DNA of 61,573 nt. Source: Chloroflexia bacterium. GTDB taxonomy: Bacteria > Chloroflexota > Chloroflexia > QHBQ01 > JAICKM01. Location of the stretch: assembly GCA_035693165.1 (NCBI GenBank), contig DASSGZ010000649.1, positions 1 to 61,573 on the forward strand, given 5' to 3'. Below are positions 33,358 to 51,059 of this stretch, in pieces. Position 1 is the first letter of the stretch; each line of letters opens with the position of its first letter. A program made the position numbers and the translations under genes. The notes beneath the pieces are model-generated. The model made no database searches. It saw only the letters and a program-made list of their open reading frames with translations, and was not told the DNA's origin.

Positions 33358-33454
33358 CGCCTGTATACTCAACATAATGTGAGCCGGCGTGCCGGGGGCT
33401 GTCCTGTGTGCCTGGCGCCGCCGGAAACCCGCCCACCCACGGAAAGCACACCAG

Positions 33455-34690: not shown

Positions 34691-34723
34691 CGTGCGGCGC
34701 GTGGCGCTTCCTGAAACGGTACC

Positions 34724-37700
34724 TTGCCCATGGCTGATCGCTCGCTGAGCAATATAACCCTGCAGGACGCCTACAGCCGCGCGCAAGCCGCGCTCGAAGG
34801 CGGCGACAGCCCCCGCGCTGTCGCCATCACCCAGCACATCCTGCGCTATTATCCCCAGTATATCGACGCCTACCGCCTGCTGGGCGAGGCCTACCTGGAG
34901 TTGGGCCGGCCCGAGGAAGCGATGCGCTTCTTCACCCACGTGCTCAACGCCGACCCCCAGAACGTGCTGGCCCACATTGGCCGCGCCATTATCGCCGAAG
35001 ACCACCACCAGGTCGACATCGCCATCGACGAGTACGAGCGCGCCTTTGAGATCGATCCGAGCATCACCGAACTGCGCGGCGAGTTGCTGCGGCTCTACGC
35101 CATCCGCTACGGCAGCGCGGGCGCCGCGATCCGCACCACGCCGAGCGGTCTGGCCTATGTCCACCTGCGCGCCGGGCTGCGCGACGCGGCCATCAGCGAA
35201 CTCGGCTATGTGGCCCAGGTGCGCCCCGACCGCTGGGATGTCGAGGTGGCGCTGGCCGAGGCCCTCTGGCGCAACGAGCAGTTGGACGAGTGCGCCGCCG
35301 TCGCCGGGGATATCCTGGCCGGCCACCCGGCCTGCGTGAAGTGCAAGTGGCTGCTGGGCTACCTTCATTGGAGCAGCGGGCGCACCGAGAGCGGGCGGCA
35401 ATACCTGATGGACGCCGTGGCCCTCGACCCGGCCTACCGCATCGCCAATGCCGTCTGGGACGCCACGCCCTGGCCCGTGGACCGGCGCATCACCCGCGCG
35501 CAAACCGCCATGGTGCCCGGCTGGACGCAAGAGGAACTGGTCGGCAGCGACCTGGACATCAGCGTGGCGCTGCCGCCGGAACCGCCTGCCTCTAAAGAGG
35601 CACCCGCCGCGCCTGGCGGATCGCGCCGCGTGACTCAGAAATTCGACACCCGCCCGCCCCTGCCCGGTGAGTCGCGCCGCGTGACTCAGAAATTCGACAC
35701 CCGCCCGCCCCTGCCCGGCCAGACCTCCGAACTGACCCCCGCGGAAGAAGTCCCGGCCCCGCCCGCGGCGGCCGCGGAAGCGCTGGAGTGGGACAGTATC
35801 CTGAGCAGCCCGGATGCGCCCGCCCCCTTCGACCTCGACTGGTTGGACGACTGGGCCGCCGCCGCCGAAACCACCCCCGCTGCGCCCGCGCAATCGGCCC
35901 ACGCCACGCTGGAGTTCGAGGCAATCGCGCCTCCCGCCGCCGAGGATAGCGCCCCCCCGCCGGACACGCTGGTCGTCACGCCCGCGCCGGAAGCCGCATC
36001 GCTCGCCATGCCGGTGGAGGCATCAGAGCCGGAAGCCGCTGCGGGCGCCGTGGCAGCAGAAGTAACGGCGCCGGAAGCCCCCCTCCCCCTGGCCGGAGCG
36101 GCAGCAGCAACGGCGCCGGAAGCCCCCCTGGCCGAAGTGGCAGCAGCAGCGGAGCCGGAAGCCGCGCTGGTCGAAACTGATGGTATCACCGAGCAAGAAG
36201 CCACCGAGATCGCAGTGTTCCCGGTCTCGCCTGCCGAGGCCGCGCCTGCCGGGCCGCCCGCGGATGAGGCCGGGTTGCCCGCCGCCGAGCCGGACGGCTT
36301 CCTGGCGTGGCTCAGCGAACCTGCGACAGGCGCGCCGCAAGCGGAGGAGATCGAGGCAGGACCGGCCGAGGATATAGCGGAGGCCAGTGACGCCGCCGAG
36401 TCGCCCGCGGCCCAGGCCGGCATGTTCCCCGCCTGGCTGGACGAACAGCCCGCAGATTCCGGCGCCGCCCCCCCCGCCGAGGGCGAAGACGCGGCGGTAC
36501 CGATCACGGAGTCGTCCTCCGCGCAGCCCAGCATGTTCCCTGAGTGGATGGGTGCGCCGGCCAATGGCGTGCAAGAAGCCGTCCCGGCGGAGAGCGCCGC
36601 CGGCGAGGCAACTGCTAATGTTGTAGAAGCAGCCGCCCCGGCAGAGAGCGCCGCCGATGTGGCCGCAGCGGAGCCGGCGGATCAAGCTGAAGCCGGCGTC
36701 CCGGCGCCCGCCCGGCATCAGGTCGTCCACCTCTTCCCGGCCTGGCTGGAAGAAGCTACGAGCGACGACGAAGACGAGTCGGACCTGGAGATGCTGCCCG
36801 CCTGGATGCGCGAGGCCGGCCCGCTCGAAGCCGGCACCCCGGCTGCAGCAGCCGAGACGACAGCAGATGCGCAAGTCGCCTCGGCGGACGCCGCCATCCC
36901 GACCGAGCACGCCGAGGAGGCCGTGCCCGCCGCGCCTGTCCCGGCGGACGCCCTCAGCTTGATCACCGCCGAGCAGGAAGCGCCGGCGATACTCACCGGC
37001 GAGGAACCCGTCGCCAGGGTAGCGGGGGATCAGGAAGTACCACCAGCGATCTCCCCGGAGGAACCGACTCCGTTTGCAGCGGCGGCGCAAGAGGACGGCG
37101 CGGATATGATGGTCCCGGCGCCCACCGAAGCGGCATCCGCAGATGAAAGTCCGCTGATTGGCGAACCCGCGCTGCCGATTATGGAGCCGGCCCTGGCGGA
37201 AGCCGAAGCAGGCGCGCCCGCCCAGGTCGAGATCATAGTGGCCGAGTCCGGGGCCGAAAGCGAACCGGCCGCCGTGGCCGCGAGTGACCCGGACGCCGCT
37301 ATCCTGCCCGACGATCTGTTCCCGGCCTGGCTGGAGGAGATCGAGCGCAGCGCAGCGACCGGCGCAACCGAAGCCCAAGCGGCCGGGGCCACGGCGCCGG
37401 AAACGACTGCTGAGGAAGCAGCGCCGGCAATGGCCACCCCGCCGGAAGCGAGTACCGAGGAAGCAGCGCCGGTAATGGCCGCCGCAGTGCCGGAAGCCCT
37501 GCCGGCTGAGGAGCCGCAGGCCGGCGTGCCGGAAGCGATGTCTGCGGACGACGTGCAGGCCAGTGCGGCCCCGCCCGAAGCGATGCCTGCTGAGGACGCG
37601 CAGGCGAATGAGGCCGCGCCCGAAGCGCTGCCTGCCGCGGACATACAGGCGAGTACTGTCGCACCGGAAAACGTACCGGCTCAGGGCGTGCCGGCCAATG

Positions 37701-40700
37701 ATGTTGCGCCGGAAGACGTGCCGGCTCAGGGCGTGCCGGCGAATGATGTTGCGCCGGAAGCGCTGCCCGCCGCAGACGCGGACTTTATAGTCGAACCGGC
37801 CACCCCACCGTCCGCAACGGCTGCCACGTCCGAACCCGGTCCTGCGGCGATGGCCGGCGCGGACCGCGTGACGGAGTCTGCGGCGCAGCTTTCTCCCAGC
37901 GAAGACGAGACGTTTCCGGCCTGGATGAGCGAGACCGGCGCGGCCAGTTTGCCGGTGGTTGTCGCGCCTGATGTGCCGGAAGCCGAAAGCGCCGAATCGG
38001 CGGATCGCGAACCGGCCCCTGCGGCGCCTCCCGCGCCGGTGGCCTCCGCGGAGGCCACCGGGATCGCGGCGTCCGCGCCGGGCGATATGCCGCAACCGGA
38101 GATCGACGCGAGTGCAGCGGCGGAAACCGCGTCGGCACAAGAGGCGGCCCCCGAGACGCCGGCAACGGAAGCGAGTGTGCTGCCGGACTGGCTCACCGAA
38201 GCAGTGAACGTGCAGACGCCGGAGGCGACCGGTGCCCCCACGCCGCTGGCGCTCGATGAAGAAACCCTGTTCGCCGCCGACCACACGCTGGGCGGACAGG
38301 CCGGCGAGATCCCCATCGCCGACGACCTCTTCCCCGCGTGGTTGGAGGCCGGCCCTTCCGGCGCGCTGGACGGCGGCGAACTACCGCCCCCGCTTGCGGC
38401 TCAGGTTCCGCCTGAAACGCCGGTTCGGGAAGACAACTCATTGCCACCGATGGTCGCGGCGGAGGATGCCGCCTTCCCCGCTGGGCAAGATGCTGCGGCA
38501 TCTGCACAACCGGCCGGCTTTGCAGAGGCGGCGGGCACACCGGACACGACGAGCACAGCGCAAGCTGCGGCGCCGGGCCTGGCCGCGGGCAGCGCCGAGC
38601 ACATCCCCGCCCCACCTGACACCAGCAAAGAGGCGGACGCGTTCCCGGCGTGGATGGCCGGCTCGTGGTTTGAGGTCGCGGTCGCCCCGGCGCCCGGCGA
38701 GCCCAGCGCGGAACCGCTGGTGATTGTGCCGGAGAGTGCGATAGAGTCCTCCACGGAACCGGCGCCGCCGGTCGAGGCCGGGGCGAACCTCCCGGCGACC
38801 GAGGCCGCCCAGGCCGCCACGCCGGAGGCAGCAGGTGAGGCCTCGGTCGCCGAAGCGGCAGCAGCGGAGAATGAGCTAATCGGGGCGCCGGGCTTCGTCG
38901 TGGCCGGCGATTCGGCGCCGGTCGTGAGCTACTCCGCCGAGGCCACGCCGGAAGCCGCCGACCCGCTGCACGAGGAGATCCTCGATTGGCCGGCGGCCGC
39001 CGAGGGCAGCCCGGATGCTGCCGAAGCCGATCATCCCACCGAACCGGACCCGACGCCGGAAGAGACCGCCGCGCCACCGGTCCTTGCCGCAGCCGCCGAA
39101 CCGCACGATATGCACCCCAGCGAGTCCGCGCCGGACGCCGCAGCGGCGGCGGACACCGAAAGCGCCGGACTGGTGTCGCCCCATGCGGCCGAAGCCGAGG
39201 GCCCGGCCCTATCCGTACTGGCCGGCCCCGAGCCGGGCGTTGGCGCCCCCTCTACCCCCGGCAGTGCCCCCGCAGATGCCGCCGCTGCGCCGCCGGTAGA
39301 TGCCGCCGCCGGAGAAGCCATCGCGGAAACCGCCGCCCCGGCGCCGGATGCGTCTGCCGGGACAGCGGAATCGAGGCCGGCCCCCGCCCTACTCCCCGCG
39401 TTAGATCATTTTGCCAAAGTGGGCTATAATCATGCCGACGACTCACAGGTTCCAGACGACACGGCAGCACCCGGCCCCCCGCTCACCCCGGCAGGCACGA
39501 CCGGCGCCGATGCCGGACCTGGCGAGCGACCGGCAGCCGTCGAAGCCGGTCACCTGCCCGATGGAGCGGTGGAGCATGGCGCGCCCGCCGCAGGCCAAGC
39601 AGCTTTCGCGACCTCAGAGGAGGACAACATGGCTCCAAGCTACAAGGAAGACGACGATCAAGAGCGCCAGTTCGACTTCGACTGGGATCGCGATGCTCTG
39701 CCCGACTATCTCAAGCCCTTCCTCATGAATGAGACTCCCGGCCAGCCGGGACAACCGCCAGCGCCCGCCGCGCCGGCCGGTCCCACGGCCGGCGCCGCGC
39801 CGCCCGCAGGCCGGCCCATGCCGCCCGCGCCGGGGGCCGGGGGCCCAGGGAGCAACGACTTTAACCTGGATCTGGATAACATTCAGCCGTTTGATTTCGG
39901 GGCCCCGCCCCCGGCGCCGTCGCCCGGCCCCGCCACGCCGATCCGGCCGCTGTCCGCAACCCCGCCGCCAGTGGCCCCACCGCCGCAACAGTCGCCGGGT
40001 GGATTCAACGAGAGCGATTTCGGCGGTGTGCAGCCCTTTAACTTCGGCGCGCCCGCCGGCCCAGGGGGCGGCGATGAGTTCGATTTCGGCAGCGAAGCGC
40101 TGCCATCGTGGTTAGGATCGGGTGGCAACGCCGGCCCCGCGTTCAGTTTCGACACGTCCGCCGGCCCGCAGGCCACCGAGCCGGCGCCGGGGCCTGATTT
40201 AAGCAGTCCGGGGATTCCCGATTGGCTGCGCACCCCGGAAACGGAGACGCCCCAGGCCGCCCGGCCCGGTCCGGCCGCGCCCCCGCCCCCGGCCGCGCCC
40301 GGCGGCGACTTCGACTTTGGCAGCGAGGCGCTGCCGTCCTGGTTGAGCGCGAGCGCCGCGCCGGCCCCGCCCGCCGCGAACGATTTCGGCGATGTGCAGC
40401 CCTTTGACTTCGGTGCCCCCGCGGGCCAGGGCCAGCCCCAGCCCTTCGACTTCGGCGCCCCCGCGGGCGGTCAGGGCCAGCCGCAACCCTTTGACTTCGG
40501 CGCCATGGCCGGCGGCGGCCCGCAGCCGTTTAACTTCGGCGCGCCCGCCACTCCCGAGCGCGGCCCCGCCCCGGCCCCGTCGCAGGAGTTTGACCTGGGC
40601 GGCGTCCAGCCATTTGATTTCGGTGCCCCGGCCACGCCTGCGCCGCCCGCCGCGCAAAGTACACCCGGTGGGCCGGCCCCAGGCGGCGACTTTGACTTTG

Positions 40701-43700
40701 GCGGCATCCAGCCGTTTGATTTCGGCGGCACCGCCGCGCAGGCAGGCGAAAGCGCCGCGCCGCAGGCAGCCGGGGCGCCCGGCGAGTTTGATTTCAGTAT
40801 GGTCGAGTCGTTCGACTTCCGGGGTCCCGGCGCCACGCCGTCCGCGGGCGGCGCCAATGACTTTGATTTCGGGGGCGTCCAGCCGTTTGACTTCGGCGGG
40901 GCACCGGCCGGCGGCGAGATGGCGGGCGATGTGAGCGATGTCGATGACTTTATCGACTTCCTGAGCGTGGGCGCGGGCAACGCCGCGCCTGCCGTGCCCG
41001 CGCCCGACGAGTTCGCCTTCGACCTGGGCGGCGACGTGCAGCCCTTCTCGCTGGAAGGCATGGGGTTGGGCAGCACGCCCGGCGCCCCCAGCCCGGCCTT
41101 CGGCGCGCCCCCCGCGCCCGGCCCGGCCTTCAGCGCCCCGCCCGCGCCCATGGCCGGCGCGCCGGCAGGCGGCGTGCGGCTGCCCGCGGGCCCCGGTCCC
41201 GAGGAGATGGGCAGCCTGGCCGGCGACGAATTCAGCTTCGAGCCGTTCATGTTTGATGCCGCGGGCGGCGCCGCCCCGCCCGCTCCGTCCGCCCCGCCGG
41301 CCTTCAACCAGGCGCCCGCCATGCCCACGTCGCCCTTCAATCCGGGGTCGGCATTTGCGAACCGCGCGCCGGCGGATGTGCCGCCCGGCCTGGAGGATCT
41401 GCCCGATCTCCAGCCCTTCTCGTTCGAGGGCCTGGATGCGACCGGCGATCAGGGCTATGGGTTTGACTCCGGCGCCGGGGGCCAATCCTTTGGCCGGCGC
41501 GCGACCGATCGCGGGGAAACCAGCCGTAGCGGCATGGCCTTCAACCTGGAAGAAGAAACCAACGCCCCCGCCGGGGATGTGCATAGCTTCTCGTGGCAGC
41601 GCCGCAGCACGCCGGCCCGCGAACCGGCCCATGCCCCGGAGGCGCCCGAGACCGCTGGATCTATCTTCGCCAAGGCGCGCAAGCGCAAGGAGGAGCTGGA
41701 ACAAACCCTGCGCCAGGAGGCGGAAGCGCGCGGCGAGGTCTACACGCCCCCGCCGGTGGCCGCGAACCTGCACCCGGAGGAAGCCGCAGAATTGAGTTAC
41801 TGGCCCAATCTGGACGAAGAAGAGGCTGTGGCGAGCGCGCCGGCCCAACCGGCGGTCCAACCCTTTGACTTTACCGCCGTGGCCGGTCCCACGCCCGCCG
41901 ATGTCGCCCAGGATATGGCGAGCCTGCAACTGGCGCCGTTCGAGTTCGAGGAAGAAGGCCCGCCCGCCGCCGGATCGCCGACTATCCAGTTGCCGGAGGA
42001 AAGCGCGCAAGCGAGCGCCCAGGCCCCCGCGGCGCCCCAGTTCGCCGCCGACCAGACAATCCAGGTGCCGTTGCAGGATCAGGCCGGCCTGGAGGCCGGC
42101 GCCCCGGCCATGCCCGAGCCGTTTGCCTTTGAGGCCGCGGAGATCCCTGCCGAAATCCAGCCCTTCTCGTTCGATCTGGGCGCAGAGGCGCAGGCCGCGC
42201 CCGCCGAGGCGCAAGCCGCCTCGCCGCCTGCCGAACCCTTTGCCTTTGAAGCCCCGGAACCCGGCGCCGCCCCGGTTGAACCGTTCGCCTTCGAGGTCCC
42301 GGCCGGCGGTCCCACCGCCGTCCAACCCTTCACTTTCGAAGCCCAGGAAGGCCCGCCGCCGGCTGTCGAACCGTTCACGTTTGAGGTCCAGGAAAGCGCC
42401 GCCGCCACCGCCGAACCTTTTGCCTTTGAGCCGGAGGCCGGCGAGGCTGCGCCTGTCCAGCCCTTCAGTTTCGAGGCCCAGGAAACCGAAGCGGCCGCCG
42501 TCCAGCCCTTCAGTTTCGAGACCCAGGAAAGCGAAGCGGCCGCCATCGAGCCCTTCAGTTTCGAGACCCAGGAAACCGAAGCGGTGGCTGTCCAGCCCTT
42601 CACCTTCGAGGCCCCCGAGGCCGGCGCGCCGGTGGAGCCGTTCGTCTTTGACACCGCCGCTCCGGCGGAATCTGCCGCGCAAGCCGCGCCCGTTACTGCC
42701 GAGGCCCCCGAGGCTGCCGCGCCCGCAGTGGAACCCTTCGCCTTCGATATGACCGAAGCGCCGGAGGCTCCCGCCGTCGAGCCGTTCACCTTCGACATGG
42801 CGGAGAGCGTTGCGCCGCCCACCTTCGAGCCCGCGGAACCGAGTGCCGCGGCGCCGCAGGCGGAAGCCGCCCCGCAGGAAGCCGCAGCGGGCGAATTGCT
42901 CTGGAGTATCCCCGTCGCCGAAGCGGGTAACGCACCCACGGCGGAAGCCACCGCCACCGGCGGCTTCGGCGAGGAAGTGGCGCCCGGCGAATTCGACTTC
43001 AGCGGCCTCCAGCCGTTTGACCTTGGGGCGCTGGACCTCACGCCCGAAGAACGCGCCTACCTCACCGGCGAGGCAGCCGCCGCCGAGGCGGCGCCCGCTG
43101 AGGTAAGTGCGCAGGCGCCCGCCGAACCCGCCGCCGTCGCGGCGCCGGAGGAGCCGGCGGGGATTCCCGAACTCCAGTTGCAGCAGACCGAACCCGCCGG
43201 CCCCATCGAGCCGTTCAGCTTCGATATGACTGAGTTTGAGCCGCCCGCCGCCGAACCGCCCGCGATGGACCTGGGCGGGGTGCCGCCCGCCGAGGCGCCC
43301 GGCTACGAGGCCGGCGCGCCCACGGCCACGGTCGAACCGGTCGAGTTCGGCATGAGCGAGGCGAGCGAAGCCGCCACGGTCGAGCCGTTCGAGTTCGACA
43401 CGGAAGCCGCCGCGCCCGCGCCCGCCGAGCCGTTCCAGTTCGAGCCGTTCCAGTTCGAGCCGGAAGCGCCGCCCGCGCCGGAGCCGGTCGAGATCGAGGC
43501 AGAGGCCACCGAAGACGAAGCGGCGCTACCGTTCAGCTTCGAGGCCTCCGCCGAGCCGGCCGTCACGCACTACGAAACCACGACGCGCACCGGTACCGGG
43601 CCGCTGGCCGCCGAAACCTGGGCGGAAATTCCGGCCGCCGGCGCCTTCGACTTCAGCGGGGTCGAGATGGACCAGGCACCCACCGAACCCGCCGTGGCCG

Positions 43701-44224
43701 AGGCGCCCGAACCCGCCGTCGCCCAGGCGCCTGAACCCGTCGTCGCGCAGGCGCCTGAAGCGCCCGCCGCCGAGGCGCCCGTGGAAACCCCCGCGCCGGT
43801 GCCCCCGGCCCCTGTGGCCGAGGCGCCTGCCCCTAAAGAGGCATCGAAAGAGGCACCGGTGGCCGCCCAACCGGCCCCGGTCCCGGTCGCGCCGCCCGCG
43901 CCGGCGGGGGGCTCCATCGACGACCTGGCCCGCCATCTGCGCGAGAACCCGGACGACACCGCCGGGCGCCTGGCCCTGGCGATCGGCTACGAGCAACGCG
44001 ACGACATCTCGCGCGCCGCCGAGCAATATCGCCTGCTGATCAAGGGCCGCAATGTGCCGGAAAATCTGCTCGACATCGTGACGGGCAACCTGCGCGATCT
44101 GGTCGAGGCCCAGCCCGATAATCCATCCTTACATCGCCTGCTGGGCGACGCCTACATGAAACAGGGCCAGTACCAGATGGCAATCGCCCAGTACAACTGG
44201 TTGCTGACCAAGGGCACACGCTAG
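34724..44224 (+). CDS. Giant (3,166 aa) acidic low-complexity protein with TPR-like N-terminal (~270 aa) and C-terminal (~100 aa) caps; no family recognised
   Basis: Single uninterrupted frame with G/C-rich third positions. TPR-like YIDAYRLLGEAYLELGRPEEAMRFF and LLGDAYMKQGQYQMAIAQY. Start is TTG 34724 or ATG 34730. Confidence 0.85.
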   Translation: MPMADRSLSNITLQDAYSRAQAALEGGDSPRAVAITQHILRYYPQYIDAYRLLGEAYLELGRPEEAMRFFTHVLNADPQNVLAHIGRAIIAEDHHQVDIAIDEYERAFEIDPSITELRGELLRLYAIRYGSAGAAIRTTPSGLAYVHLRAGLRDAAISELGYVAQVRPDRWDVEVALAEALWRNEQLDECAAVAGDILAGHPACVKCKWLLGYLHWSSGRTESGRQYLMDAVALDPAYRIANAVWDATPWPVDRRITRAQTAMVPGWTQEELVGSDLDISVALPPEPPASKEAPAAPGGSRRVTQKFDTRPPLPGESRRVTQKFDTRPPLPGQTSELTPAEEVPAPPAAAAEALEWDSILSSPDAPAPFDLDWLDDWAAAAETTPAAPAQSAHATLEFEAIAPPAAEDSAPPPDTLVVTPAPEAASLAMPVEASEPEAAAGAVAAEVTAPEAPLPLAGAAAATAPEAPLAEVAAAAEPEAALVETDGITEQEATEIAVFPVSPAEAAPAGPPADEAGLPAAEPDGFLAWLSEPATGAPQAEEIEAGPAEDIAEASDAAESPAAQAGMFPAWLDEQPADSGAAPPAEGEDAAVPITESSSAQPSMFPEWMGAPANGVQEAVPAESAAGEATANVVEAAAPAESAADVAAAEPADQAEAGVPAPARHQVVHLFPAWLEEATSDDEDESDLEMLPAWMREAGPLEAGTPAAAAETTADAQVASADAAIPTEHAEEAVPAAPVPADALSLITAEQEAPAILTGEEPVARVAGDQEVPPAISPEEPTPFAAAAQEDGADMMVPAPTEAASADESPLIGEPALPIMEPALAEAEAGAPAQVEIIVAESGAESEPAAVAASDPDAAILPDDLFPAWLEEIERSAATGATEAQAAGATAPETTAEEAAPAMATPPEASTEEAAPVMAAAVPEALPAEEPQAGVPEAMSADDVQASAAPPEAMPAEDAQANEAAPEALPAADIQASTVAPENVPAQGVPANDVAPEDVPAQGVPANDVAPEALPAADADFIVEPATPPSATAATSEPGPAAMAGADRVTESAAQLSPSEDETFPAWMSETGAASLPVVVAPDVPEAESAESADREPAPAAPPAPVASAEATGIAASAPGDMPQPEIDASAAAETASAQEAAPETPATEASVLPDWLTEAVNVQTPEATGAPTPLALDEETLFAADHTLGGQAGEIPIADDLFPAWLEAGPSGALDGGELPPPLAAQVPPETPVREDNSLPPMVAAEDAAFPAGQDAAASAQPAGFAEAAGTPDTTSTAQAAAPGLAAGSAEHIPAPPDTSKEADAFPAWMAGSWFEVAVAPAPGEPSAEPLVIVPESAIESSTEPAPPVEAGANLPATEAAQAATPEAAGEASVAEAAAAENELIGAPGFVVAGDSAPVVSYSAEATPEAADPLHEEILDWPAAAEGSPDAAEADHPTEPDPTPEETAAPPVLAAAAEPHDMHPSESAPDAAAAADTESAGLVSPHAAEAEGPALSVLAGPEPGVGAPSTPGSAPADAAAAPPVDAAAGEAIAETAAPAPDASAGTAESRPAPALLPALDHFAKVGYNHADDSQVPDDTAAPGPPLTPAGTTGADAGPGERPAAVEAGHLPDGAVEHGAPAAGQAAFATSEEDNMAPSYKEDDDQERQFDFDWDRDALPDYLKPFLMNETPGQPGQPPAPAAPAGPTAGAAPPAGRPMPPAPGAGGPGSNDFNLDLDNIQPFDFGAPPPAPSPGPATPIRPLSATPPPVAPPPQQSPGGFNESDFGGVQPFNFGAPAGPGGGDEFDFGSEALPSWLGSGGNAGPAFSFDTSAGPQATEPAPGPDLSSPGIPDWLRTPETETPQAARPGPAAPPPPAAPGGDFDFGSEALPSWLSASAAPAPPAANDFGDVQPFDFGAPAGQGQPQPFDFGAPAGGQGQPQPFDFGAMAGGGPQPFNFGAPATPERGPAPAPSQEFDLGGVQPFDFGAPATPAPPAAQSTPGGPAPGGDFDFGGIQPFDFGGTAAQAGESAAPQAAGAPGEFDFSMVESFDFRGPGATPSAGGANDFDFGGVQPFDFGGAPAGGEMAGDVSDVDDFIDFLSVGAGNAAPAVPAPDEFAFDLGGDVQPFSLEGMGLGSTPGAPSPAFGAPPAPGPAFSAPPAPMAGAPAGGVRLPAGPGPEEMGSLAGDEFSFEPFMFDAAGGAAPPAPSAPPAFNQAPAMPTSPFNPGSAFANRAPADVPPGLEDLPDLQPFSFEGLDATGDQGYGFDSGAGGQSFGRRATDRGETSRSGMAFNLEEETNAPAGDVHSFSWQRRSTPAREPAHAPEAPETAGSIFAKARKRKEELEQTLRQEAEARGEVYTPPPVAANLHPEEAAELSYWPNLDEEEAVASAPAQPAVQPFDFTAVAGPTPADVAQDMASLQLAPFEFEEEGPPAAGSPTIQLPEESAQASAQAPAAPQFAADQTIQVPLQDQAGLEAGAPAMPEPFAFEAAEIPAEIQPFSFDLGAEAQAAPAEAQAASPPAEPFAFEAPEPGAAPVEPFAFEVPAGGPTAVQPFTFEAQEGPPPAVEPFTFEVQESAAATAEPFAFEPEAGEAAPVQPFSFEAQETEAAAVQPFSFETQESEAAAIEPFSFETQETEAVAVQPFTFEAPEAGAPVEPFVFDTAAPAESAAQAAPVTAEAPEAAAPAVEPFAFDMTEAPEAPAVEPFTFDMAESVAPPTFEPAEPSAAAPQAEAAPQEAAAGELLWSIPVAEAGNAPTAEATATGGFGEEVAPGEFDFSGLQPFDLGALDLTPEERAYLTGEAAAAEAAPAEVSAQAPAEPAAVAAPEEPAGIPELQLQQTEPAGPIEPFSFDMTEFEPPAAEPPAMDLGGVPPAEAPGYEAGAPTATVEPVEFGMSEASEAATVEPFEFDTEAAAPAPAEPFQFEPFQFEPEAPPAPEPVEIEAEATEDEAALPFSFEASAEPAVTHYETTTRTGTGPLAAETWAEIPAAGAFDFSGVEMDQAPTEPAVAEAPEPAVAQAPEPVVAQAPEAPAAEAPVETPAPVPPAPVAEAPAPKEASKEAPVAAQPAPVPVAPPAPAGGSIDDLARHLRENPDDTAGRLALAIGYEQRDDISRAAEQYRLLIKGRNVPENLLDIVTGNLRDLVEAQPDNPSLHRLLGDAYMKQGQYQMAIAQYNWLLTKGTR
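35621..35722 (+). repeat. Near-perfect 51-bp tandem duplication inside the giant gene (SRRVTQKFDTRPPLPG x2)
   Basis: The copies start at 35621 and 35672. The 48 nt encoding SRRVTQKFDTRPPLPG are identical and only the trailing codon differs (GAG vs CAG). Confidence 0.95.
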
Positions 44225-44233
44225 GGGACTGTA

Positions 44234-44725
44234 ATGCCTGATCGAACTACCGGCCCCGAGGGCGGCATCGCCGACCTGAGCATGGCCGACATCACCGCCG
44301 TCGACCGGCCCACGCTGGGGCCGGCGGCCGCGGTGGCCGCGTTCCGCGCGATCCGGCTCGGCGCTCTGGGCACCGTGGCCGGGTCGGGCCTGAACGGTGC
44401 CGTCTACCTGGCCGGGCGCCGCTGGGCGCAGAGCCTGACCTTCACCACCCCGGCCGATCTGTTTCGCACGCTGGCCGAACTCCGCCTGGGGGTGCCGCGC
44501 GTCGTGAACCAGAGCGCTGACAGCATCGAAATCGAACTGGCGGAAACTCTGAGCGCCGCGGGCTTGCCCGCCGTGGGCGAGCCGTTGTGCCACTTCGAGG
44601 CCGGGTTTCTGGCGGGCGCGCTGGCTACGCTGACCGGCAAGCGCGTCCAGGTGCGCGAAACGACCTGTTGGGGCACCGGCGGGCACCGGTGCGTCTTTGT
44701 CGCAAAACTCGAACCCCGCACGTGA
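44234..44725 (+). CDS. V4R (4-vinyl-reductase-type) domain protein
   Basis: CHFEAGFLAGALATLTGKRVQVRETTCWGTGGHRCVF Cys pattern. Begins 9 nt after the giant gene, behind AGGGGA. Confidence 0.75.
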   Translation: MPDRTTGPEGGIADLSMADITAVDRPTLGPAAAVAAFRAIRLGALGTVAGSGLNGAVYLAGRRWAQSLTFTTPADLFRTLAELRLGVPRVVNQSADSIEIELAETLSAAGLPAVGEPLCHFEAGFLAGALATLTGKRVQVRETTCWGTGGHRCVFVAKLEPRT

Positions 44726-44772
44726 CCGGGCGGGGTTCCGCTTAATCTGGTAGCCTACGGGAGGGCAACTGA

Positions 44773-45120
44773 GTGAGGAAAATCGTCGAAGATCTGATTC
44801 GCATCGACGGCGTAATCGGCGGCCTGCTGGTGGGCAAAGACGGCCTGGTGGTGTCGAGCACCCTGCTGGAAGATGAAGATGCCGAGGTCCTGGGCGCGAT
44901 GTCCGCCGCCATGTTCGGGACCATCGCCAAGGCCGCCGAGCGGATCGGCGTGGGGGCTCTGCGCGACACGATCATCGAAGCCGCCGAGGGATCGATCCAG
45001 TTAATCGAGGCCGAGGATCTCATCCTTGTCGTGATCACCGAGCGGGGCGTGAACCTGGGTATGATTCGGATCGAGATGCGCAAAGCCGCCAAGCGCGTCC
45101 GTGAAGAAATCCCGATGTAG
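44773..45120 (+). CDS. Roadblock/LC7 (MglB-like) domain protein
   Basis: IDGVIGGLLVGKDGLVVSS...EDLILVVITERGVNLGMIR. GTG start behind GGGAGGG. Confidence 0.82.
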   Translation: MRKIVEDLIRIDGVIGGLLVGKDGLVVSSTLLEDEDAEVLGAMSAAMFGTIAKAAERIGVGALRDTIIEAAEGSIQLIEAEDLILVVITERGVNLGMIRIEMRKAAKRVREEIPM

Positions 45121-45170
45121 CCGGGGCACCGCGCACCATACCTGACCCTACTTGAAGGAGTTTTATCGCT

Positions 45171-45620
45171 TTGGAACGTACGCTTATTATCCTGAAACCC
45201 GACGCCGTGCAGCGGGGCCTGGCCGGCGAGATCCTGAACCGGCTGGAGCGCCGGGGCTTGAAGATCGCCGGCATGAAGATGATGCAGGTCAGCCCCGAAC
45301 TGGCGAAAGAACACTATGCCGAGCATGTCGGCAAGCCCTTCTATAACGGCCTGATCGAGTATATCACCTCCTCGCCGGTGGTCGTGCTGGTGCTGGAGGG
45401 CAAGAACGCCGTCGCCATTTCGCGCAGCACCATCGGCGCCACCAATCCGGCCAACGCCGCCCCCGGCACCATCCGCGCCGACCTGGCCGTCGAGACGGGC
45501 CGCAACCTCATCCACGGGTCTGCCGACCCGGAAGCCGCCGCCCGCGAAGTGAGCCTCTGGTTCAAGGACGACGAACTGACCTCGTGGCCGCGCGATACCG
45601 ACCGCTGGATCCAGGAGTAA
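45171..45620 (+). CDS. ndk: Nucleoside diphosphate kinase
   Basis: ERTLIILKPDAVQRGL...NLIHGSAD. TTG start behind GAAGGAG. Confidence 0.93.
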   Translation: MERTLIILKPDAVQRGLAGEILNRLERRGLKIAGMKMMQVSPELAKEHYAEHVGKPFYNGLIEYITSSPVVVLVLEGKNAVAISRSTIGATNPANAAPGTIRADLAVETGRNLIHGSADPEAAAREVSLWFKDDELTSWPRDTDRWIQE

Positions 45621-45630
45621 GCCCGCCCCG

Positions 45631-47832
45631 GTGACCACGAACTCTGTGCCGGCCCCGCCCGCGGGAGAGACCCTCGTGGCGCGGGGCCGGCGCGCCGCAC
45701 TTGCTCGCCTGTCCCCCCGCACGCATCCGGACCTGTTCATCGCCGCCGGCATCTTTGCCGCGGCGCTGCTGGCGCGCGCCTGGGGCGTCCAGTGGTCCCT
45801 GCCCTACGTGGGCCATGTGGACGAGCCGAAGATCGTCGACTCGGGCGTGCAGATCGTCAAGACGGGCGATCTGAATCCCCACCTGTTCATCTGGCCGTCA
45901 TTGGTCATCTACATCCAGGCGCTGATCTACAAGCTCAATCTACTGTGGGGCACCTGGCGCGGCTACTACGTGGGGCCGCAGTCGCTGCCCGACCAGAACC
46001 ACATCTTCGCCCTGGCGCCCGGCCTCTACCTCTGGGGGCGCACCTTCAGCGCGCTGGTGGGCGCCGCCGCCGTGACCGGTTGCTTCGCGCTGGGCCGGGC
46101 CATGTTCGGGCGCGCGGCAGGCATCCTGGCGGCCTTCCTGCTGCTGACCTCGCCGCTGCACGTCGAATACTCGCACTACCTTGTCACCGACGTGACGGTA
46201 GGCGCCTGCGGGTTGCTGGCGCTGGCCCTCGCCTGGCGGCTGGCGACGCACCCCGGTCGCCGCGTCGCCCTGCTGGCCGGGGCCGCCGTGGGCCTCTGCA
46301 CGGCGGCCAAATACAACGGCCTCTATATCGCCCTGCCGGTGGGCATCGCCTGGCTGCTGGCCTGGCGGCGGCTCCATCGCGGCGATCCCCGCCCGGCCAC
46401 GAGCGGGCGCTGGCTGCTCGTCGCGCTGGGCATGGTAGTCGCCGCCGCCGCCGTCTTCCTGATCACCAACCCCTACGTGATCCTCGACTGGACCCACTGG
46501 TCGCGCGGCTTCGTCTTCCAGGTCAACGCCTACCTGCCCGCGAACACCGTGGGCCAGATCGCCACGGCCTTCGGCAAACAGGTGGACGCCCTCTGGACCA
46601 CCGATACGGCCCTGCTGGCGGCGGGGCTGGCCGGCAGCCTGGTGCTGCTGGTCGAGGCGATCCGCCAGCGGCGCAGCAATGCGAATCTGGTGCGCGCCGC
46701 CTGGCTGCTGCTGCCCTTCCCGCTCGCCTACACGCTCGCCATGAGCCGCTTCACCGAGATCTTCGAGCGCAACCTGATCATCACCCTGCCCTTTGTCTGC
46801 CTCGCCTTCGGCTACGGCGCCGCCCGCGTGGCGGAGGTCGTCGCGCCGCGCCTGCCGTCGCGGGCGCGGGTCGCATGGGCGGTGCCCGCCGTGGCCGCCA
46901 TCCTGGGACTGCTGGTGGTCGCGGAACCCGCCCGCCGGGTGTTCAATTTTGACGAGTATATGGGCAAGACCGAGAGCCGCAACGCCGCCTGGGCCTGGCT
47001 GCAGGGCGAGCTGCGCGCCGGGCACCGCGCCGCGGTGGAGTTGCACACGCTGCAAACCTGTGCGCCGCCGCCCTGGAATTGCCCCGCGCCCGATGTCCTG
47101 GCGCCCAATACCCCGCTCACCGAGCACCCGCCGATCTGGTACGCCAACCACGGCTACGATTATGTGCTGCTCGTCGGGCAGGAGATCGCTTACGTGGGCA
47201 ACCCCGACAAGGAGGGTCGCCGCCCGCCCGCCCAACTGGCGCCCTACCTGGCCTTGCCCGAAGTGCGCCGCTTTGCCGGGGACGCCGAGAACGGCAAAGG
47301 CCCAACCGTCCGCGTGCTACGCGTGCTCGATAGCCTGCAGACGATCCTGGGCGTGACCCCCAGCGGGGCGCACTTCGGCCCGGTCGCCGAACTGTGGGGC
47401 TACAACCTCGCGCCGCTGCCCACGGCGGGCGTCGCCTACGACCCATCCGCCGCGCCGCCGCCGGCCAAGGCCTACCGGCCCGGCGCCGCCGCCGGGGTCA
47501 CGCTCTACTGGCGCGCGCTGCCCGGCGCGGCCACCACGCCGGGCAACTGGACCGTGGCGCTGCACCTGAACGACCGCACCGGCAAAACGGTTGCCCAGGT
47601 CGATGTGCAGCCCATCAGCAGCGGCCATATCCGCCCCGTCAGCGACTGGTACGCCAACGAGTTCCTGGTCGGGGCCTATAACATCCCCCTGCCCCCGACG
47701 CTGGCCCCCGGCGCCTACAACCTGACCCTGGCGCTCTACAACGCCCCCACCGGCCCCGGTCTCCCGGTGGAGCAGACCGGCCAGGCCCCGGCCCCCGTCC
47801 TCGACCTCGGCACGATCCAGGTCACACCGTAG
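45631..47832 (+). CDS. GT-C fold membrane glycosyltransferase, family 39 (PMT/ArnT-like), with a ~250-aa C-terminal soluble domain
   Basis: About 11 TM spans. Acidic VDEPK in the first loop after TM1. GTG start 10 nt after ndk. Confidence 0.65.
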   Translation: MTTNSVPAPPAGETLVARGRRAALARLSPRTHPDLFIAAGIFAAALLARAWGVQWSLPYVGHVDEPKIVDSGVQIVKTGDLNPHLFIWPSLVIYIQALIYKLNLLWGTWRGYYVGPQSLPDQNHIFALAPGLYLWGRTFSALVGAAAVTGCFALGRAMFGRAAGILAAFLLLTSPLHVEYSHYLVTDVTVGACGLLALALAWRLATHPGRRVALLAGAAVGLCTAAKYNGLYIALPVGIAWLLAWRRLHRGDPRPATSGRWLLVALGMVVAAAAVFLITNPYVILDWTHWSRGFVFQVNAYLPANTVGQIATAFGKQVDALWTTDTALLAAGLAGSLVLLVEAIRQRRSNANLVRAAWLLLPFPLAYTLAMSRFTEIFERNLIITLPFVCLAFGYGAARVAEVVAPRLPSRARVAWAVPAVAAILGLLVVAEPARRVFNFDEYMGKTESRNAAWAWLQGELRAGHRAAVELHTLQTCAPPPWNCPAPDVLAPNTPLTEHPPIWYANHGYDYVLLVGQEIAYVGNPDKEGRRPPAQLAPYLALPEVRRFAGDAENGKGPTVRVLRVLDSLQTILGVTPSGAHFGPVAELWGYNLAPLPTAGVAYDPSAAPPPAKAYRPGAAAGVTLYWRALPGAATTPGNWTVALHLNDRTGKTVAQVDVQPISSGHIRPVSDWYANEFLVGAYNIPLPPTLAPGAYNLTLALYNAPTGPGLPVEQTGQAPAPVLDLGTIQVTP

Positions 47833-47899
47833 CCGGGCGCCTGGATCTGTAGGGTTGCGCGTATTATCGTGGCGTTACCCCGGAGATCGGGGTAAGAGG

Positions 47900-48004
47900 G
47901 GCAGGCGCGATCAATCGCGCCGCTACGCACGAGGCGTATCACTCTGCGCCACCGGGCCGTTATCTAGGCATATTTCGTAGCGGCGCGATTGATCGCGCCT
48001 GCCG
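47900..48004. repeat. Perfect 28-bp inverted repeat (GGCAGGCGCGATCAATCGCGCCGCTACG / complement) around a 49-nt spacer; family F5
   Basis: Arms at 47900-47927 and 47977-48004. Each arm contains its own GCGCGA-TCAA-TCGCGC hairpin. Confidence 0.9.
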
Positions 48005-48045
48005 CCTCACCGGGATGCTGGGATTGCATCCCACAGGAGGGTCGG

Positions 48046-48255
48046 ATGAACCAGCCTCCGCAACTCACCGCGATTATTGAGCGCCAGGACAACGCCTACA
48101 TTGCGCTATGCCCGGAACTCGATATCGCCAGCCAGGGTGACACGGTTGAGGAAGCGCGCCGTAATCTCGCCGAAGCGCTGGAGTTGTTCTTTGCGGTTGC
48201 CGATGCTGGCGAAGTGGCGCTCCGGCTGGGAGCGCATCCCCTTGAGGGTGAATGA
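48046..48255 (+). CDS. hicB: HicB-family (UPF0150) antitoxin-like protein, 69 aa
   Basis: LTAIIERQDNAYIALCPELDIASQGDTVEEARRNLAEALELFF. ATG behind AGGAGGG. Confidence 0.75.
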   Translation: MNQPPQLTAIIERQDNAYIALCPELDIASQGDTVEEARRNLAEALELFFAVADAGEVALRLGAHPLEGE

Positions 48256-48276
48256 GTATCGCTTTCTGGTCTTCCT

Positions 48277-48352
48277 TGTCATGCTGAACGTAGTGAAGCA
48301 TCTCGTCTTGTACCCCGACGGGACGAGACTCTTCGCTGCGCTCAGAGTGACA
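48277..48352. repeat. Inverted pair of F3 units (TGTCATGCTGAACGTAGTGAAGCATCTCGTC / GACGAGACTCTTCGCTGCGCTCAGAGTGACA)
   Basis: 31-bp imperfect arms with a 14-nt loop. Confidence 0.85.
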
Positions 48353-48430
48353 AGGGCCACTCCCAGCCGTTCTGAGCCTGCGCCGGTCAGGCCGCAGTAG
48401 CCCGTCGATTCCAACACGACAATAGAGAGG

Positions 48431-48451
48431 CCGCACCCGGAACGGGTGCGG
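48431..48451 (-). terminator. Hairpin (CCGCACCC-GGAAC-GGGTGCGG) followed by a U-rich tract on the minus strand, downstream of the S8 protease gene
   Basis: 8-bp stem. The minus strand continues UCUCUAUUGUCGUGUU. Confidence 0.5.
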
Positions 48452-48508
48452 TCTCGTCGTTGGCCGGCTGGGGCGGAGCGGCGCGCAAGGCGCCGCCCCG
48501 CCGGGGCG

Positions 48509-50935
48509 TTACGGGTTGCGGAGCGCAGCCTGGCTGGGCGCGCAGTTCAGCGGGAAGAAGGTTTGCGAGGCTACCTTGCTCACCTGCCCGCGGGTGATGT
48601 TGGCGTTGGGCCGGTAGTAGACTCCTGGGCAGGGCTCGCCGGGGCCGCCGCAGGTGTAGCCGCTGATCACGCCGTGCAGCGACAGCCGCTCGATGAACAC
48701 ATAGAACGGGTTGGCCGCGGGCACGTCGGCGAACGTCTGGCCGCTGGGCGTCTCGTTATAGCCGGCGGCGTTGGCGTCGATCTTGGCGAGCTGGCCGCGC
48801 GTCACCGGCAGTTCCCAGCGGAAGCAGGGCACGCCCGACGGGCAGTTGGCCGCCGTATCGTAGCCGCTGATCGCCCCCGTCGCCGCCAGTCGCTCGATGT
48901 AGACGTAGAACGGGTTGCTGGCGGGCACGTCGGTGAACGTCTGGCCGCTGACGGCCGCGTTCAGCCCCGCGGAGTTGGCGATGATCTTCGACACCTGGCC
49001 GCGGGTCACGTCCACGCCCCAGCGGAAGGTGTTGTCGCTATAGCCGCTGATGATGCCCCGGCAGTAGAGACACTGGATGTACTGGTAGAACGGGTTGAAG
49101 GAGTCCACGTCGGTGAACGGCAGCGGGCAGTTCACCGGGGTGGCCGTGGCGGCGGGCGCGGTCGGGGTGGCCGTCGCACCGGCCGGCGGCGTAACCGTCG
49201 GCGGAGCCGGGGTGGTCGTCGCCGCGACGCCGGTGGGCGTCTCCGTCGCGGTCGCCGGCAGCGCGGTCGCGGTCGCCGGCGGCACGGTGACCGTCGGTGG
49301 GACGGCGGTATGGGTGGCCGTCGGCGGCACGGCGGTGGCCGTGGCCGTGGCGGTCGGCGGAGTGCCGGTCACAGTCGGCGTGGGGGTGGCGGCACCGTTG
49401 ACGGCGGCCAGCGCGTCGATCCGCCCGTAGCCAAAGTGGTTGTTCGGGATCGTGGTGTAGGGAATACCGCCGCAGGACGTGGCGCCCGTCGTAACCAGCA
49501 CGGTCGGGTTCGCCGTCTGCTCCAGCAGCGCCTTCGTGGCGGCGATCTGGCGCACCAGATCGGGCCGGGCCGACCAGAGCAGGGCCACCACGCCGACGAC
49601 GTGCGGCCCGGCCATCGAGGTGCCCGACAGGCTGGCGTAGCTCGTCGTGCCCGAGTAGTAGGCGGAGCGCACATTCACGCCGGGCGCCGAAATGTCGGGC
49701 TTGCGCCGGTTGGAACCGTCTACCGTCACCGGGCCGCGGCTGCTGAAGCTCGCCAGGGTGTTGCTGCTGTTGTAGGCACCGGTGCTGAACGCCGCGCTGT
49801 AGATGGCGGGCGGATCGCTGACGGAGGAGCAGGAACTGCCGCTGTTACCCGCCGACGCCTCGACGAAGATGCCGGACGCCTCCGTACTTTCGACGATCGT
49901 CTGTAGGGTCGTGGCCGCGCACCCCTCACTGGTGGGGCAACCCCAACTGTTGTTCATCACATGCGGGCGCCGGGCCGGGTCCGGGTTTTGACCGTTCAGA
50001 TCGTATGGTGCTATGAAGAACTGGAAACACTCGGTATACGTGGCCGGGGTGCCGTTGCCCTGGTCCATGTTGCGGCAGCCGATCCACTTGGCGCCGGGGG
50101 CCACGCCGATCTGATTCCCGCCACCGTCGTCGCCGATCACGGTGCCGGTGGTATGGGTGCCGTGCCCGTCATCGTCGCAGGGGAACGGCGAGTTGGCGCC
50201 GCAGATGCCCCCGCCGCTGTGGACGGAGTCATGCCAGTTGTAGTTGTGGTCGGCGGTGGTGCCGTTCCAGCCGCGATAATGGCCCTTGAGGGCCGCGTGG
50301 TCCCAGAGCATGCCGGTGTCCTGGTTGGCGATAACGATGCCTTGGCCGGTATAACCCAGCGCCCAGACCGCCGGCGCGTTCACATTCGCCACGCCCCACT
50401 CGACCGCGCCCGGCACCGCCGGGGCCGTGCTCTCGCCCTGCGGCGCGCGCACCGGGTCGCTGATGCCGGCGAAGGGCGCGTTGGACTCGATGGCGCGCAC
50501 ATCGTCGCGCGCGGCCAGCGCGTCGATCAGGGCGCGGTCGCCGGTGGTCATAATGACGTTCGCCACCCAGAACGACTGGTAGGTGCGGCCCTGGGCGCGC
50601 AGGAACGCCTGGAGCGGGCCCTGCGTGCGCGCCGCCGTGTCGCGCAGGGTGTTATAGACAAACCAGCCGCGCGCATCCTGGTCGCGCATGTTGTACGCGC
50701 TGCTCAGGTCGGCCTGCTCGGCCAGCAGAATCACGATCGGGGCGCTGGCGCCGTTCGCGGTGGCGCGCAACACCTCGGGGGCAATCGTGACCGGCCCGCG
50801 CGCCGCGGGCGCCACCTGGCCGGCGGCCAGGCCCGGCGAAATCATGCCGGCCAGATCGAACACGGACAGCGCCAGCAAGGCCGTCAGCGCCCACGCGGCG
50901 AATGCCCGCCGCCGGAGTCGTAGGGGTCCCTTCAT
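48509..50935 (-). CDS. Secreted subtilisin-family (S8) serine protease with I9-like propeptide, Thr/Pro linker and three C-terminal SLH domains
   Basis: Catalytic motifs NQDTG, HGTHTTG, SGTSMAGPH. The SLH cassette is almost identical to paralogs A-C. Start moved to MKGPLRLRRRAF behind GGAAGGAG. Confidence 0.9.
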   Translation of the reverse strand: MKGPLRLRRRAFAAWALTALLALSVFDLAGMISPGLAAGQVAPAARGPVTIAPEVLRATANGASAPIVILLAEQADLSSAYNMRDQDARGWFVYNTLRDTAARTQGPLQAFLRAQGRTYQSFWVANVIMTTGDRALIDALAARDDVRAIESNAPFAGISDPVRAPQGESTAPAVPGAVEWGVANVNAPAVWALGYTGQGIVIANQDTGMLWDHAALKGHYRGWNGTTADHNYNWHDSVHSGGGICGANSPFPCDDDGHGTHTTGTVIGDDGGGNQIGVAPGAKWIGCRNMDQGNGTPATYTECFQFFIAPYDLNGQNPDPARRPHVMNNSWGCPTSEGCAATTLQTIVESTEASGIFVEASAGNSGSSCSSVSDPPAIYSAAFSTGAYNSSNTLASFSSRGPVTVDGSNRRKPDISAPGVNVRSAYYSGTTSYASLSGTSMAGPHVVGVVALLWSARPDLVRQIAATKALLEQTANPTVLVTTGATSCGGIPYTTIPNNHFGYGRIDALAAVNGAATPTPTVTGTPPTATATATAVPPTATHTAVPPTVTVPPATATALPATATETPTGVAATTTPAPPTVTPPAGATATPTAPAATATPVNCPLPFTDVDSFNPFYQYIQCLYCRGIISGYSDNTFRWGVDVTRGQVSKIIANSAGLNAAVSGQTFTDVPASNPFYVYIERLAATGAISGYDTAANCPSGVPCFRWELPVTRGQLAKIDANAAGYNETPSGQTFADVPAANPFYVFIERLSLHGVISGYTCGGPGEPCPGVYYRPNANITRGQVSKVASQTFFPLNCAPSQAALRNP

Positions 50936-51059
50936 TACGGTTTGTGTTACTCCTTCCCTGTGATAAAACCGGAACCGATAGATCGCCGCACAACGGGGAT
51001 TTAGGGCTGTCCCGAATGGGCCGCGGCAGGCAGACAAACTGCGCGGGACATAGGCGCAT

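Follow-up and report, generated by a model that had tools for sequence, protein, structure and literature searches.

Contig DASSGZ010000649.1 of a Chloroflexia bacterium (GenBank assembly GCA_035693165.1), analysed here over positions 1–61,573 (the window), carries two small genes directly behind a giant one. The giant gene (34724–44224, plus strand) encodes a TPR-capped protein of 3166 aa. It is followed on the same strand by genes for a stand-alone V4R-domain protein of 163 aa (44234–44725) and a minimal Roadblock/LC7 protein of 115 aa (44773–45120), and then by ndk, the gene for nucleoside diphosphate kinase (45171–45620). Do the two small proteins form a GTPase-regulating pair that serves the giant scaffold, as a first-pass annotation had proposed, or do they have separate ties to it? 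The comparison of related loci led us to consider it rather probable that the Roadblock protein is an orphan adaptor tied to a multivalent scaffold with PFSL motifs, and that V4R is an optional ligand-sensing input.

The gene calls and domain labels of the first-pass annotation held up. The V4R gene starts with ATG 9 nt past the stop codon of the giant gene, and the Roadblock gene with GTG 47 nt past the stop codon of the V4R gene, each behind its own ribosome-binding site (AGGGGA and GGGAGGG, respectively). Both start codons were kept in orthologues. The next gene in order, ndk (PF00334, E 5e-57; NF001908, 202 bits with a cut-off of 155), begins 50 nt past the Roadblock gene. The Pfam scores of both small proteins were well over the cut-offs: V4R matched PF02830 at residues 99–158 with E 3e-21 (75.7 bits, cut-off 31), and the Roadblock protein matched Robl_LC7 (PF03259) with E 3e-15 (56.2 bits, cut-off 23). 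The two small genes and their domains are confirmed as described, far beyond chance.

The giant–Roadblock–ndk unit in Chloroflexia

A census of 80 JGI metagenome loci was assembled with a Roadblock profile, independently of V4R, and features were called by scripted tblastn. Loci with at least 400 nt upstream of the Roadblock gene (n = 71) were testable for upstream features. The C-terminal TPR of the giant was located directly 5' of the Roadblock gene in 70 of these 71 loci; in the sole locus without the giant, V4R lay upstream and the contig stopped before the expected start of the giant. On the 3' side, ndk followed the Roadblock gene in 63 of 70 testable loci and was not found there in the other seven. 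Giant, Roadblock and ndk genes were also found together, without V4R, in a Chloroflexus genome (GCA_000516515), a Kouleothrix-type contig, a Herpetosiphonaceae metagenome-assembled genome (MAG) and GCA_000526415, which we take to be Kallotenue from its JAGA01 accession. In these four, 32–44 nt separated the annotated giant and Roadblock genes. Gaps across the census were typically 18–150 nt, with a few of several hundred and up to 620 nt. The giant, Roadblock and ndk genes constitute a class-wide gene unit of the Chloroflexia. No description of this neighbourhood was found in the literature searched, nor anything specific on a Roadblock/V4R operon, on a link between Roadblock and ndk or on Roadblock proteins in Chloroflexia.

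V4R was distributed very differently. It was present upstream of the Roadblock gene in 5 of the 71 testable loci and in none of the 64 loci with a Roadblock identity below 75%. Wherever the context of a V4R orthologue was visible, down to 57% V4R identity, the order was giant, V4R, Roadblock, ndk. Two more distant loci (L020 and L028; Roadblock 82–83%, ndk 66–67%) carried V4R at 57–58% identity. The gene was missing from the close relatives L031 and L045 (Roadblock 84%, ndk 78%), which had a 70-nt spacer instead, and from L042 and L043 (Roadblock 94%), which had an unrelated spacer sequence with a direct repeat (38 nt in L043). V4R remnants were sought in L043 and L031, and none were found. 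With V4R missing from these four loci but present in the less closely related L020 and L028, the simplest history consistent with the sequences would be one gain in an uncultured, mostly soil-derived subclade of the Chloroflexia, followed by at least two losses. Identical or near-identical copies of the locus occurred only in metagenome contigs and in MAGs labelled Chloroflexia. A scan of the genome collection with the V4R profile returned five Chloroflexia MAGs and one Omnitrophota V4R-GGDEF fusion, and no named cultured organism with a V4R orthologue. V4R and Roadblock are not a conserved pair; V4R is an optional add-on. The interpretation of the first-pass annotation was partly supported: its link to the scaffold was borne out for Roadblock, which adjoins the giant throughout the class, and V4R is not a fixed partner of the giant. 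The proposed giant–V4R–Roadblock trio was kept only in a narrow subclade, whereas giant–Roadblock–ndk was class-wide.

Genes outside the giant–Roadblock–ndk trio were wholly different between Chloroflexia orders, and because of this the giant–Roadblock linkage itself is the conserved feature. The differing flanks, the seven loci without ndk downstream and the coming and going of V4R would also be expected if the genes shared a transcript without sharing a function, with ndk as a housekeeping gene, small regulators that are unrelated and a gene order that persists by drift because the region rearranges slowly. However, a giant–Roadblock adjacency that is almost invariant while its surroundings are reshuffled is the signature of selection for linkage, and the Roadblock protein is unusually conserved for its 115 aa. 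Its homologues (229 matching clusters) shared 65–70% identity in Chloroflexus, Kouleothrix, Herpetosiphonaceae and other Chloroflexia, compared with 58–64% for ndk, and 41 of 115 columns were invariant across the class. We regard persistence by drift as unlikely.

Several loci departed in detail from the common layout. The enlarged giant–Roadblock gaps of 288–620 nt (L058, L102, L106–108 and L112) contained no inserted gene, only short, non-coding-looking open reading frames. Spacers of 222–620 nt occurred in some lineages (L102, 8640–9126; L106, 310–930; L108, 1440–2061; L043, 2600–2815). Those of L102, L106 and L108 shared similar translated sequence, e.g. GARAACP.RRDAGGTPALPGAW, indicative of a repeated intergenic element. 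The linkage to ndk was not absolute: in L046, L067, L089 and L113, ndk did not follow Roadblock although the sequence continued for several kb past it. The Herpetosiphonaceae MAG alone had a stand-alone receiver gene directly before the giant, together with an HNH gene (L036, 3102–3488 and 2557–3090, respectively), and an HNH gene also preceded the giant in Kallotenue (L038, 5974–6495). The receiver gene recalls RomR-type partners of Roadblock proteins.

The Roadblock protein and its giant partner

The AlphaFold2 model of the Roadblock protein (pLDDT, i.e., predicted local distance difference test, 91.5) had the full alpha-beta-alpha fold in the layout of the superfamily, with helices at residues 2–9, 34–58 and 95–112 and strands at residues 14–21, 26–29, 65–70, 73–80 and 83–90. 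Foldseek matched it to Asgard Roadblock3 (9jue, template modelling (TM) score 0.90) and Myxococcus xanthus MglB (TM 0.88–0.91), and also to Streptomyces avermitilis 3kye, Thorarchaeota 7f8m and LAMTOR2, with an overall TM of 0.84–0.91. The phmmer matches were Asgard 7f8m (E 4e-9), CvnB5 (3leq, E 4e-6), MglB (E 8e-4) and MglC (7ct3, E 0.029). The protein thus has the fold of the Asgard and Ragulator (LAMTOR2) platforms, and the Asgard Roadblocks were its best match in both sequence and structure. Invariant charged residues were located on alpha1 (R2, E6 and R10), alpha2 (E35, D36, E38, K53 and R57) and alpha3 (R103 and R108), a pattern that suggests that both faces of the fold have conserved partners.

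The first-pass annotation had reported no MglA- or Ras-like GTPase in the window, and the searches agreed. Pfam scans of approximately 35 likely genes across the window returned no Ras-like GTPase and only SelB, and tblastn with MglA and H-Ras gave no match in the window at E ≤ 1. No MglA/Ras homologue was found with tblastn within ±10 kb of 121 loci, 1.19 Mb in all. As the MglA query matched PDB 6hjh over its full length with 429 bits, the Chloroflexus MglA, which is 53% identical, would have been detected.

MglB is the GTPase-activating protein (GAP) of MglA, and its C-terminal segment contacts MglA. A true MglB-type GAP of the organism's MglA, encoded apart from mglA, would account for the structural and phmmer matches to MglB and for the JGI annotation of the Roadblock orthologues as 'predicted regulator of Ras-like GTPase activity'. 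The segment in question corresponds to the extra residues of MglB, whose chains in the PDB are 160–167 aa long; the window protein ends at residue 115, three residues past alpha3, and has no room for such an extension. In addition, Asgard Roadblock and CvnB5 scored above MglB. Coupling of an MglB gene means an mglA-family gene within four genes (PMC4316618), and no MglA match was found within ±10 kb in the 121 loci or anywhere in the window. Members of the host class glide and have mglBA at another genomic location (PMC3000849). In Chloroflexus aurantiacus, MglA has its own Roadblock-motif (MglB) gene immediately upstream (PMC3000849, table 2), whereas the orthologue of the window protein adjoins the giant, and mglA was not found within 10 kb of it. 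The window Roadblock protein is therefore an orphan paralogue and not the cognate GAP. Without coupling to mglA and without the C-terminal extension, it was not assigned to MglB despite the likeness in predicted fold, and we consider a role as GAP of MglA very unlikely.

Orphans are common in this family: 328 of 749 MglB-family proteins were orphans, none of them characterised at publication (PMC4316618). The window Roadblock protein fits their definition, the absence of an MglA-family gene within four genes, and differs from them in having a defined class-wide neighbourhood of giant and ndk. Chloroflexi carry MglA of groups 1 and 5 as well as Rup GTPases (PMC4316618).

MglC resembles the window protein in being a single Roadblock/LC7 domain of similar size (120 aa in its PDB chain). 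In M. xanthus, MglC has no GAP activity and serves as an adaptor between MglB and the proline-rich RomR, both of which it binds. Like MglC with RomR, the window Roadblock protein likely works with a large protein that is disordered over a long stretch. However, the sequence match to MglC was weak and no RomR-like gene was seen, and unlike in the MglB/MglC module, the fixed partner gene encodes a TPR-capped giant and not a response regulator. Membership in the conservons was rejected, too. In place of the gene order cvnA (sensor kinase), cvnB, cvnC (DUF742) and cvnD (GTPase), the neighbours were the giant and ndk, and the likeness to CvnB5 is at the fold or family level only.

TPRs were detected by Pfam in the giant protein only at residues 17–88 and 3122–3162. 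They lie in an N-terminal cap (approximately residues 1–250) and a C-terminal cap (approximately the last 100 residues), which enclose a disordered middle region rich in Ala, Pro and Glu. The giants of Kouleothrix, Chloroflexus, Herpetosiphonaceae and Kallotenue shared approximately 40% identity with the window giant over the N-terminal 250 aa and approximately 37% over the C-terminal 100 aa, and their middle regions could not be aligned. Judged by these alignments, the giants of the Chloroflexia are orthologous at both TPR caps.

Within the middle region, the motif PFSL[DE][DE]LGL recurred in 7–26 copies in every giant examined (L032, L034, L035, L036 and L038 among them), typically in the acidic form (D/E)P(D/E)(L/M)(K/T)PFSL(E/S)(D/E)LGL(S/T)xEE. 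In Chloroflexus, it was embedded in near-perfect 34-aa tandem repeats, the number of which varied by strain, with giants of 1739 and 1198 aa (L034, 4738–9957; L035, 6361–9957; respectively). In the window clade, the motif had drifted to PFxF forms (e.g., QPFDFG and EPFAFE), and the middle region of the window giant contained approximately 35 PFx[FL] motifs. That this motif was kept class-wide inside otherwise unalignable sequence strongly hints at a partner that binds peptides, for which a dimer of the Roadblock protein and the two TPR caps would be the obvious candidates. A second short motif, PhiPxWPhi (FPAWL, LPSWL, IPDWL), occurred in 12 copies in the window giant and in 5 copies in the L020/L028 lineage, and was not found in the examined parts of the V4R-less giants L031, L032, L034, L035, L036 and L038. 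The co-occurrence of this motif with V4R probably rests on one evolutionary gain, and we treat it as a lead only.

The polar hubs HubP and FimV are large acidic repeat proteins with TPR-like ends. The giant is similar in being very large and acidic, with short-motif tandem repeats, TPR modules and a strain-variable repeat number. Pfam detected neither LysM nor the FimV C-terminal motif in the giant; membership was thus ruled out, and the likeness is an analogy only.

The V4R protein as a probable sensor-type module

Residues C119, E142, C145 and C153 of the V4R protein aligned with the C..E..C..C residues of PoxR/CapR. The three cysteines were invariant and E142 was kept in at least 90% of 21 V4R orthologues. 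The window protein keeps the Zn-ligand positions of PoxR and MopR, a predicted metal site that would tether the beta-sheet to the helix. The role of these positions as Zn ligands in PoxR is published (PMC10933270). The top Foldseek matches of the V4R model were the V4R protein MJ1460, Bacillus subtilis YslB and the sensor domains of MopR, PoxR and DmpR, and further matches were Bet3/TRAPPC3, H-NOX and BcsD, all at TM 0.45–0.62. Bet3/TRAPPC3 (TM 0.50–0.61) scored similarly to or lower than the prokaryotic V4Rs and with worse E-values. The model showed the superfold of V4R, Bet3 and H-NOX, as expected for this family, and its matches were led by prokaryotic V4Rs. The solved V4R structures were 10–20% identical to the window protein.

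Word-indexed searches with V4R returned the orthologue group alone, which comprised approximately 30 clusters among 5.8 billion proteins, all from Chloroflexia. An exhaustive profile search was used for distant pairing and yielded, among 1.84 billion representatives, 694 V4R relatives at E < 1e-3, only 5 of them at E < 1e-30. The 50 next-best relatives were scanned for fused domains. Approximately 20 were stand-alone; fusions were found to GGDEF (7), Thioredoxin (6), HisKA (5), SpoIIE (PP2C; 4), a sigma-54 activator (2), a Ser/Thr kinase with TPR (1) and Robl_LC7 (1). The nearest stand-alone relative, at 38% identity, was encoded in a partner-switching operon with STAS, anti-sigma kinase, PP2C and TPR genes, and no Roadblock neighbour was found for the nearest stand-alone relatives (L121–L123). 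The proteins flanking P0158 had no Pfam match. In L121 (4432–11053), the nearest stand-alone V4R gene was placed between a NifH-like gene with two Oxidored_nitro genes (one with PCP_red) on one side and the partner-switching set on the other, an arrangement that suggests sensing linked to tetrapyrroles or redox state as the role of that protein.

Since the relatives were fusions with or operon partners of signalling modules, the Zn positions were kept and prokaryotic V4Rs matched first, V4R is best read as an input module for sensing a ligand or redox state and not as a TRAPP-like structural subunit. It shares PF02830 with the phenol-binding, Zn-stabilised sensor domains of PoxR, MopR and DmpR and with MJ1460 and YslB, which include its best structural matches, and the C..E..C..C residues with PoxR/CapR, and its relatives are signalling input domains. 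Unlike PoxR, MopR and DmpR, it is stand-alone and has no output domain in cis.

An archaeal protein of 282 aa (P0171/P0298) consisted of an N-terminal Roadblock domain fused to a C-terminal V4R domain, with 27% and 35% identity, respectively, to the window proteins. Its gene neighbours included S27e, S24e, Spt4 and Rpb7. In two contexts (L119, 8001–8849; L120, 803–1651), the fusion gene was located directly upstream of SMC, with a 36-nt gap in one and an overlap in the other. Outside the orthologue clade, it was the sole Roadblock-bearing protein among the 147 V4R representatives listed. Because both domains are joined in one protein, the fusion shows, at the level of domain architecture, that Roadblock and V4R folds can act together.

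This fusion also speaks for reading the window pair as a heteromeric TRAPP- or Ragulator/MglB-like guanine nucleotide exchange factor or GAP, recruited to the giant and acting on a GTPase encoded elsewhere. The two genes are adjacent and probably co-transcribed, the first-pass annotation was right that V4R has been proposed as a prokaryotic relative of TRAPP Bet3 (PMC2253512), with Bet3/TRAPPC3 at TM 0.5–0.6 among the structural matches, the Roadblock fold matches MglB and LAMTOR2, and Chloroflexi encode MglA and Rup GTPases (PMC4316618). However, V4R was missing from 66 of 71 loci, and close relatives did not have it either; the Roadblock protein therefore works without it. MJ1460, YslB and MopR/PoxR scored at least as well as Bet3, and the nearest relatives in sequence were sensor modules. 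The archaeal fusion itself adjoins SMC and not a GTPase. No longin-type or other TRAPP subunit and no Rab-like GTPase was found in the window, and the flanks of the 121 loci gave no Ras/MglA match. Membership in TRAPP was rejected, as V4R had no partner subunits and was nearer to prokaryotic V4R proteins than to Bet3. TRAPP, Ragulator and their Asgard homologues share the same two folds with the window pair, which differs from them in its missing longin partner and linked GTPase and in the optional status of V4R. The Roadblock and V4R-type genes of Asgard archaea, too, mostly lie outside operons with GTPase genes (PMC10933270). We consider such a heteromer quite improbable. The pairing proposed in the first-pass annotation was not upheld, given how rarely V4R accompanies Roadblock, its sensor-type relatives and the lack of a GTPase in the 1.19 Mb of flanks: V4R and Roadblock would not be a dedicated TRAPP-like or MglB-like GTPase regulator pair.

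The gene row and the reading of the locus

Six genes on the plus strand form the row. The first gene (33389–34690) encodes an SbcD/Mre11-type metallophosphoesterase (Metallophos, E 2e-16; NCBIfam TIGR00619 sbcd, 155.9 bits with a cut-off of 77.65) and ends 33 nt before the giant. An SbcD-type gene was also present 5' of the giant in L031 and was not found at this position in the Kouleothrix, Chloroflexus, Herpetosiphonaceae and Kallotenue loci. It is not followed by SbcC; the TPR giant sits where sbcC normally lies. The last gene, 10 nt past ndk (45631–47832), encodes a PMT-family (GT-C) membrane glycosyltransferase (PF02366, PF13231). This gene was part of the row in this lineage only: it was kept in close relatives and was not found at this position in the other Chloroflexia orders compared. 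The GC content at third codon positions was 0.81–0.87, like that of neighbouring real genes, and codon-position GC marked the giant, V4R, Roadblock and ndk genes as coding. A sigma-70-type promoter-like site (TTGACA-18-TATAAT with TG, 12/12 consensus match) was located ahead of the SbcD-type gene (33328–33357, plus strand). It was the sole strong match within 33000–48600, where shuffled sequence averaged 0.7, and may well function. A terminator-like hairpin at 44673–44692 lies inside the V4R coding sequence and was treated as chance. Because of the promoter-like site ahead of the SbcD-type gene and the absence of any convincing terminator between genes of the row, a six-gene transcript from SbcD to the PMT-family gene is plausible.

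Elsewhere in the window, the gene for SelB, the selenocysteine elongation factor (20497–22389, minus strand), was the sole GTPase-type find of the Pfam scans. Directly upstream of it on the minus strand lies the gene for a 434-aa protein (22393–23697) with a marginal match to the Yip1 domain (PF04893, 28.9 bits with a cut-off of 28.6). In eukaryotes, the Yip1 family comprises Rab-interacting membrane proteins. Three consecutive SLH-domain paralogues of approximately 1000–1140 aa (1184–4351, 4894–7941 and 8359–11778, all minus strand), two of them with weak, below-cut-off MAM/Reelin-like matches, and genes for an SLH-bearing S8 protease (48509–51037, minus strand) and an SLH-Kelch protein (55282–58338, minus strand) indicate by their domains that the window is rich in cell-surface proteins.

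For the reading that we favour, of Roadblock as an adaptor on the giant with V4R as its optional sensor, the following mechanism can be proposed. A Roadblock homodimer platform would work physically with the giant, docking on its TPR caps or on the repeated motifs, and would serve as an adaptor of the MglC or LAMTOR type that connects the scaffold with a protein whose gene lies elsewhere. A small GTPase of the MglA or Rup families, encoded at other loci in Chloroflexi, would be the most plausible such protein, and ndk, presumably co-expressed, could supply GTP locally. V4R may be a pocket protein stabilised by Zn; it would bind a ligand of hydrophobic or aromatic nature and modulate in trans how Roadblock and scaffold assemble, much as its relatives would act in cis on GGDEF, histidine-kinase, PP2C and sigma-54 outputs.

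Five points weigh against this reading. Synteny reflects co-inheritance and not binding. As a housekeeping gene, ndk may be a passive neighbour, and the gap between Roadblock and ndk reached 375 nt in Chloroflexus. A small GTPase for the host itself is presumed from other Chloroflexi, the searches having covered the window and the locus flanks. The AlphaFold2 model of V4R was only moderate, with a pLDDT of 68 that is too low for pocket analysis, and its residues 1–29 were disordered. Finally, V4R of the window is without the CxxC before the 'GLP' motif that its nearest relatives carry, a pair that was lost in the window V4R clade, and its chemistry may differ.

A bolder possibility, which we rate as a long shot, is that the PFSL[DE][DE]LGL array recruits many Roadblock dimers as a Ragulator-like platform, and that the V4R pocket binds PhiPxWPhi peptides and not a metabolite. 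Such a platform might concentrate a small GTPase encoded at another locus (MglA or Rup), for which NDK would supply GTP on site. The PhiPxWPhi class would have arisen in the V4R-bearing subclade, and the V4R pocket of PoxR/MopR binds phenolic ligands. If true, the whole assembly would be a bacterial analogue of eukaryotic assemblies of scaffold, Roadblock and Bet3-fold proteins.

Because V4R is optional, recently gained and repeatedly lost, and has ordinary sensor domains as relatives, its adjacency to Roadblock alone does not justify a proto-TRAPP or proto-Ragulator reading here. The rare archaeal Roadblock-V4R fusion beside SMC is a lead for the prokaryotic history of eukaryotic trafficking folds. 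Orphan Roadblocks account for nearly half of the MglB-family members in prokaryotes, and none other than MglC has a known function. The invariant genomic partner of the Roadblock gene, a giant with a motif array, offers a testable hypothesis for what an orphan Roadblock protein binds. The hosts are gliding filamentous bacteria, and the unit may bear on the control of their polarity.

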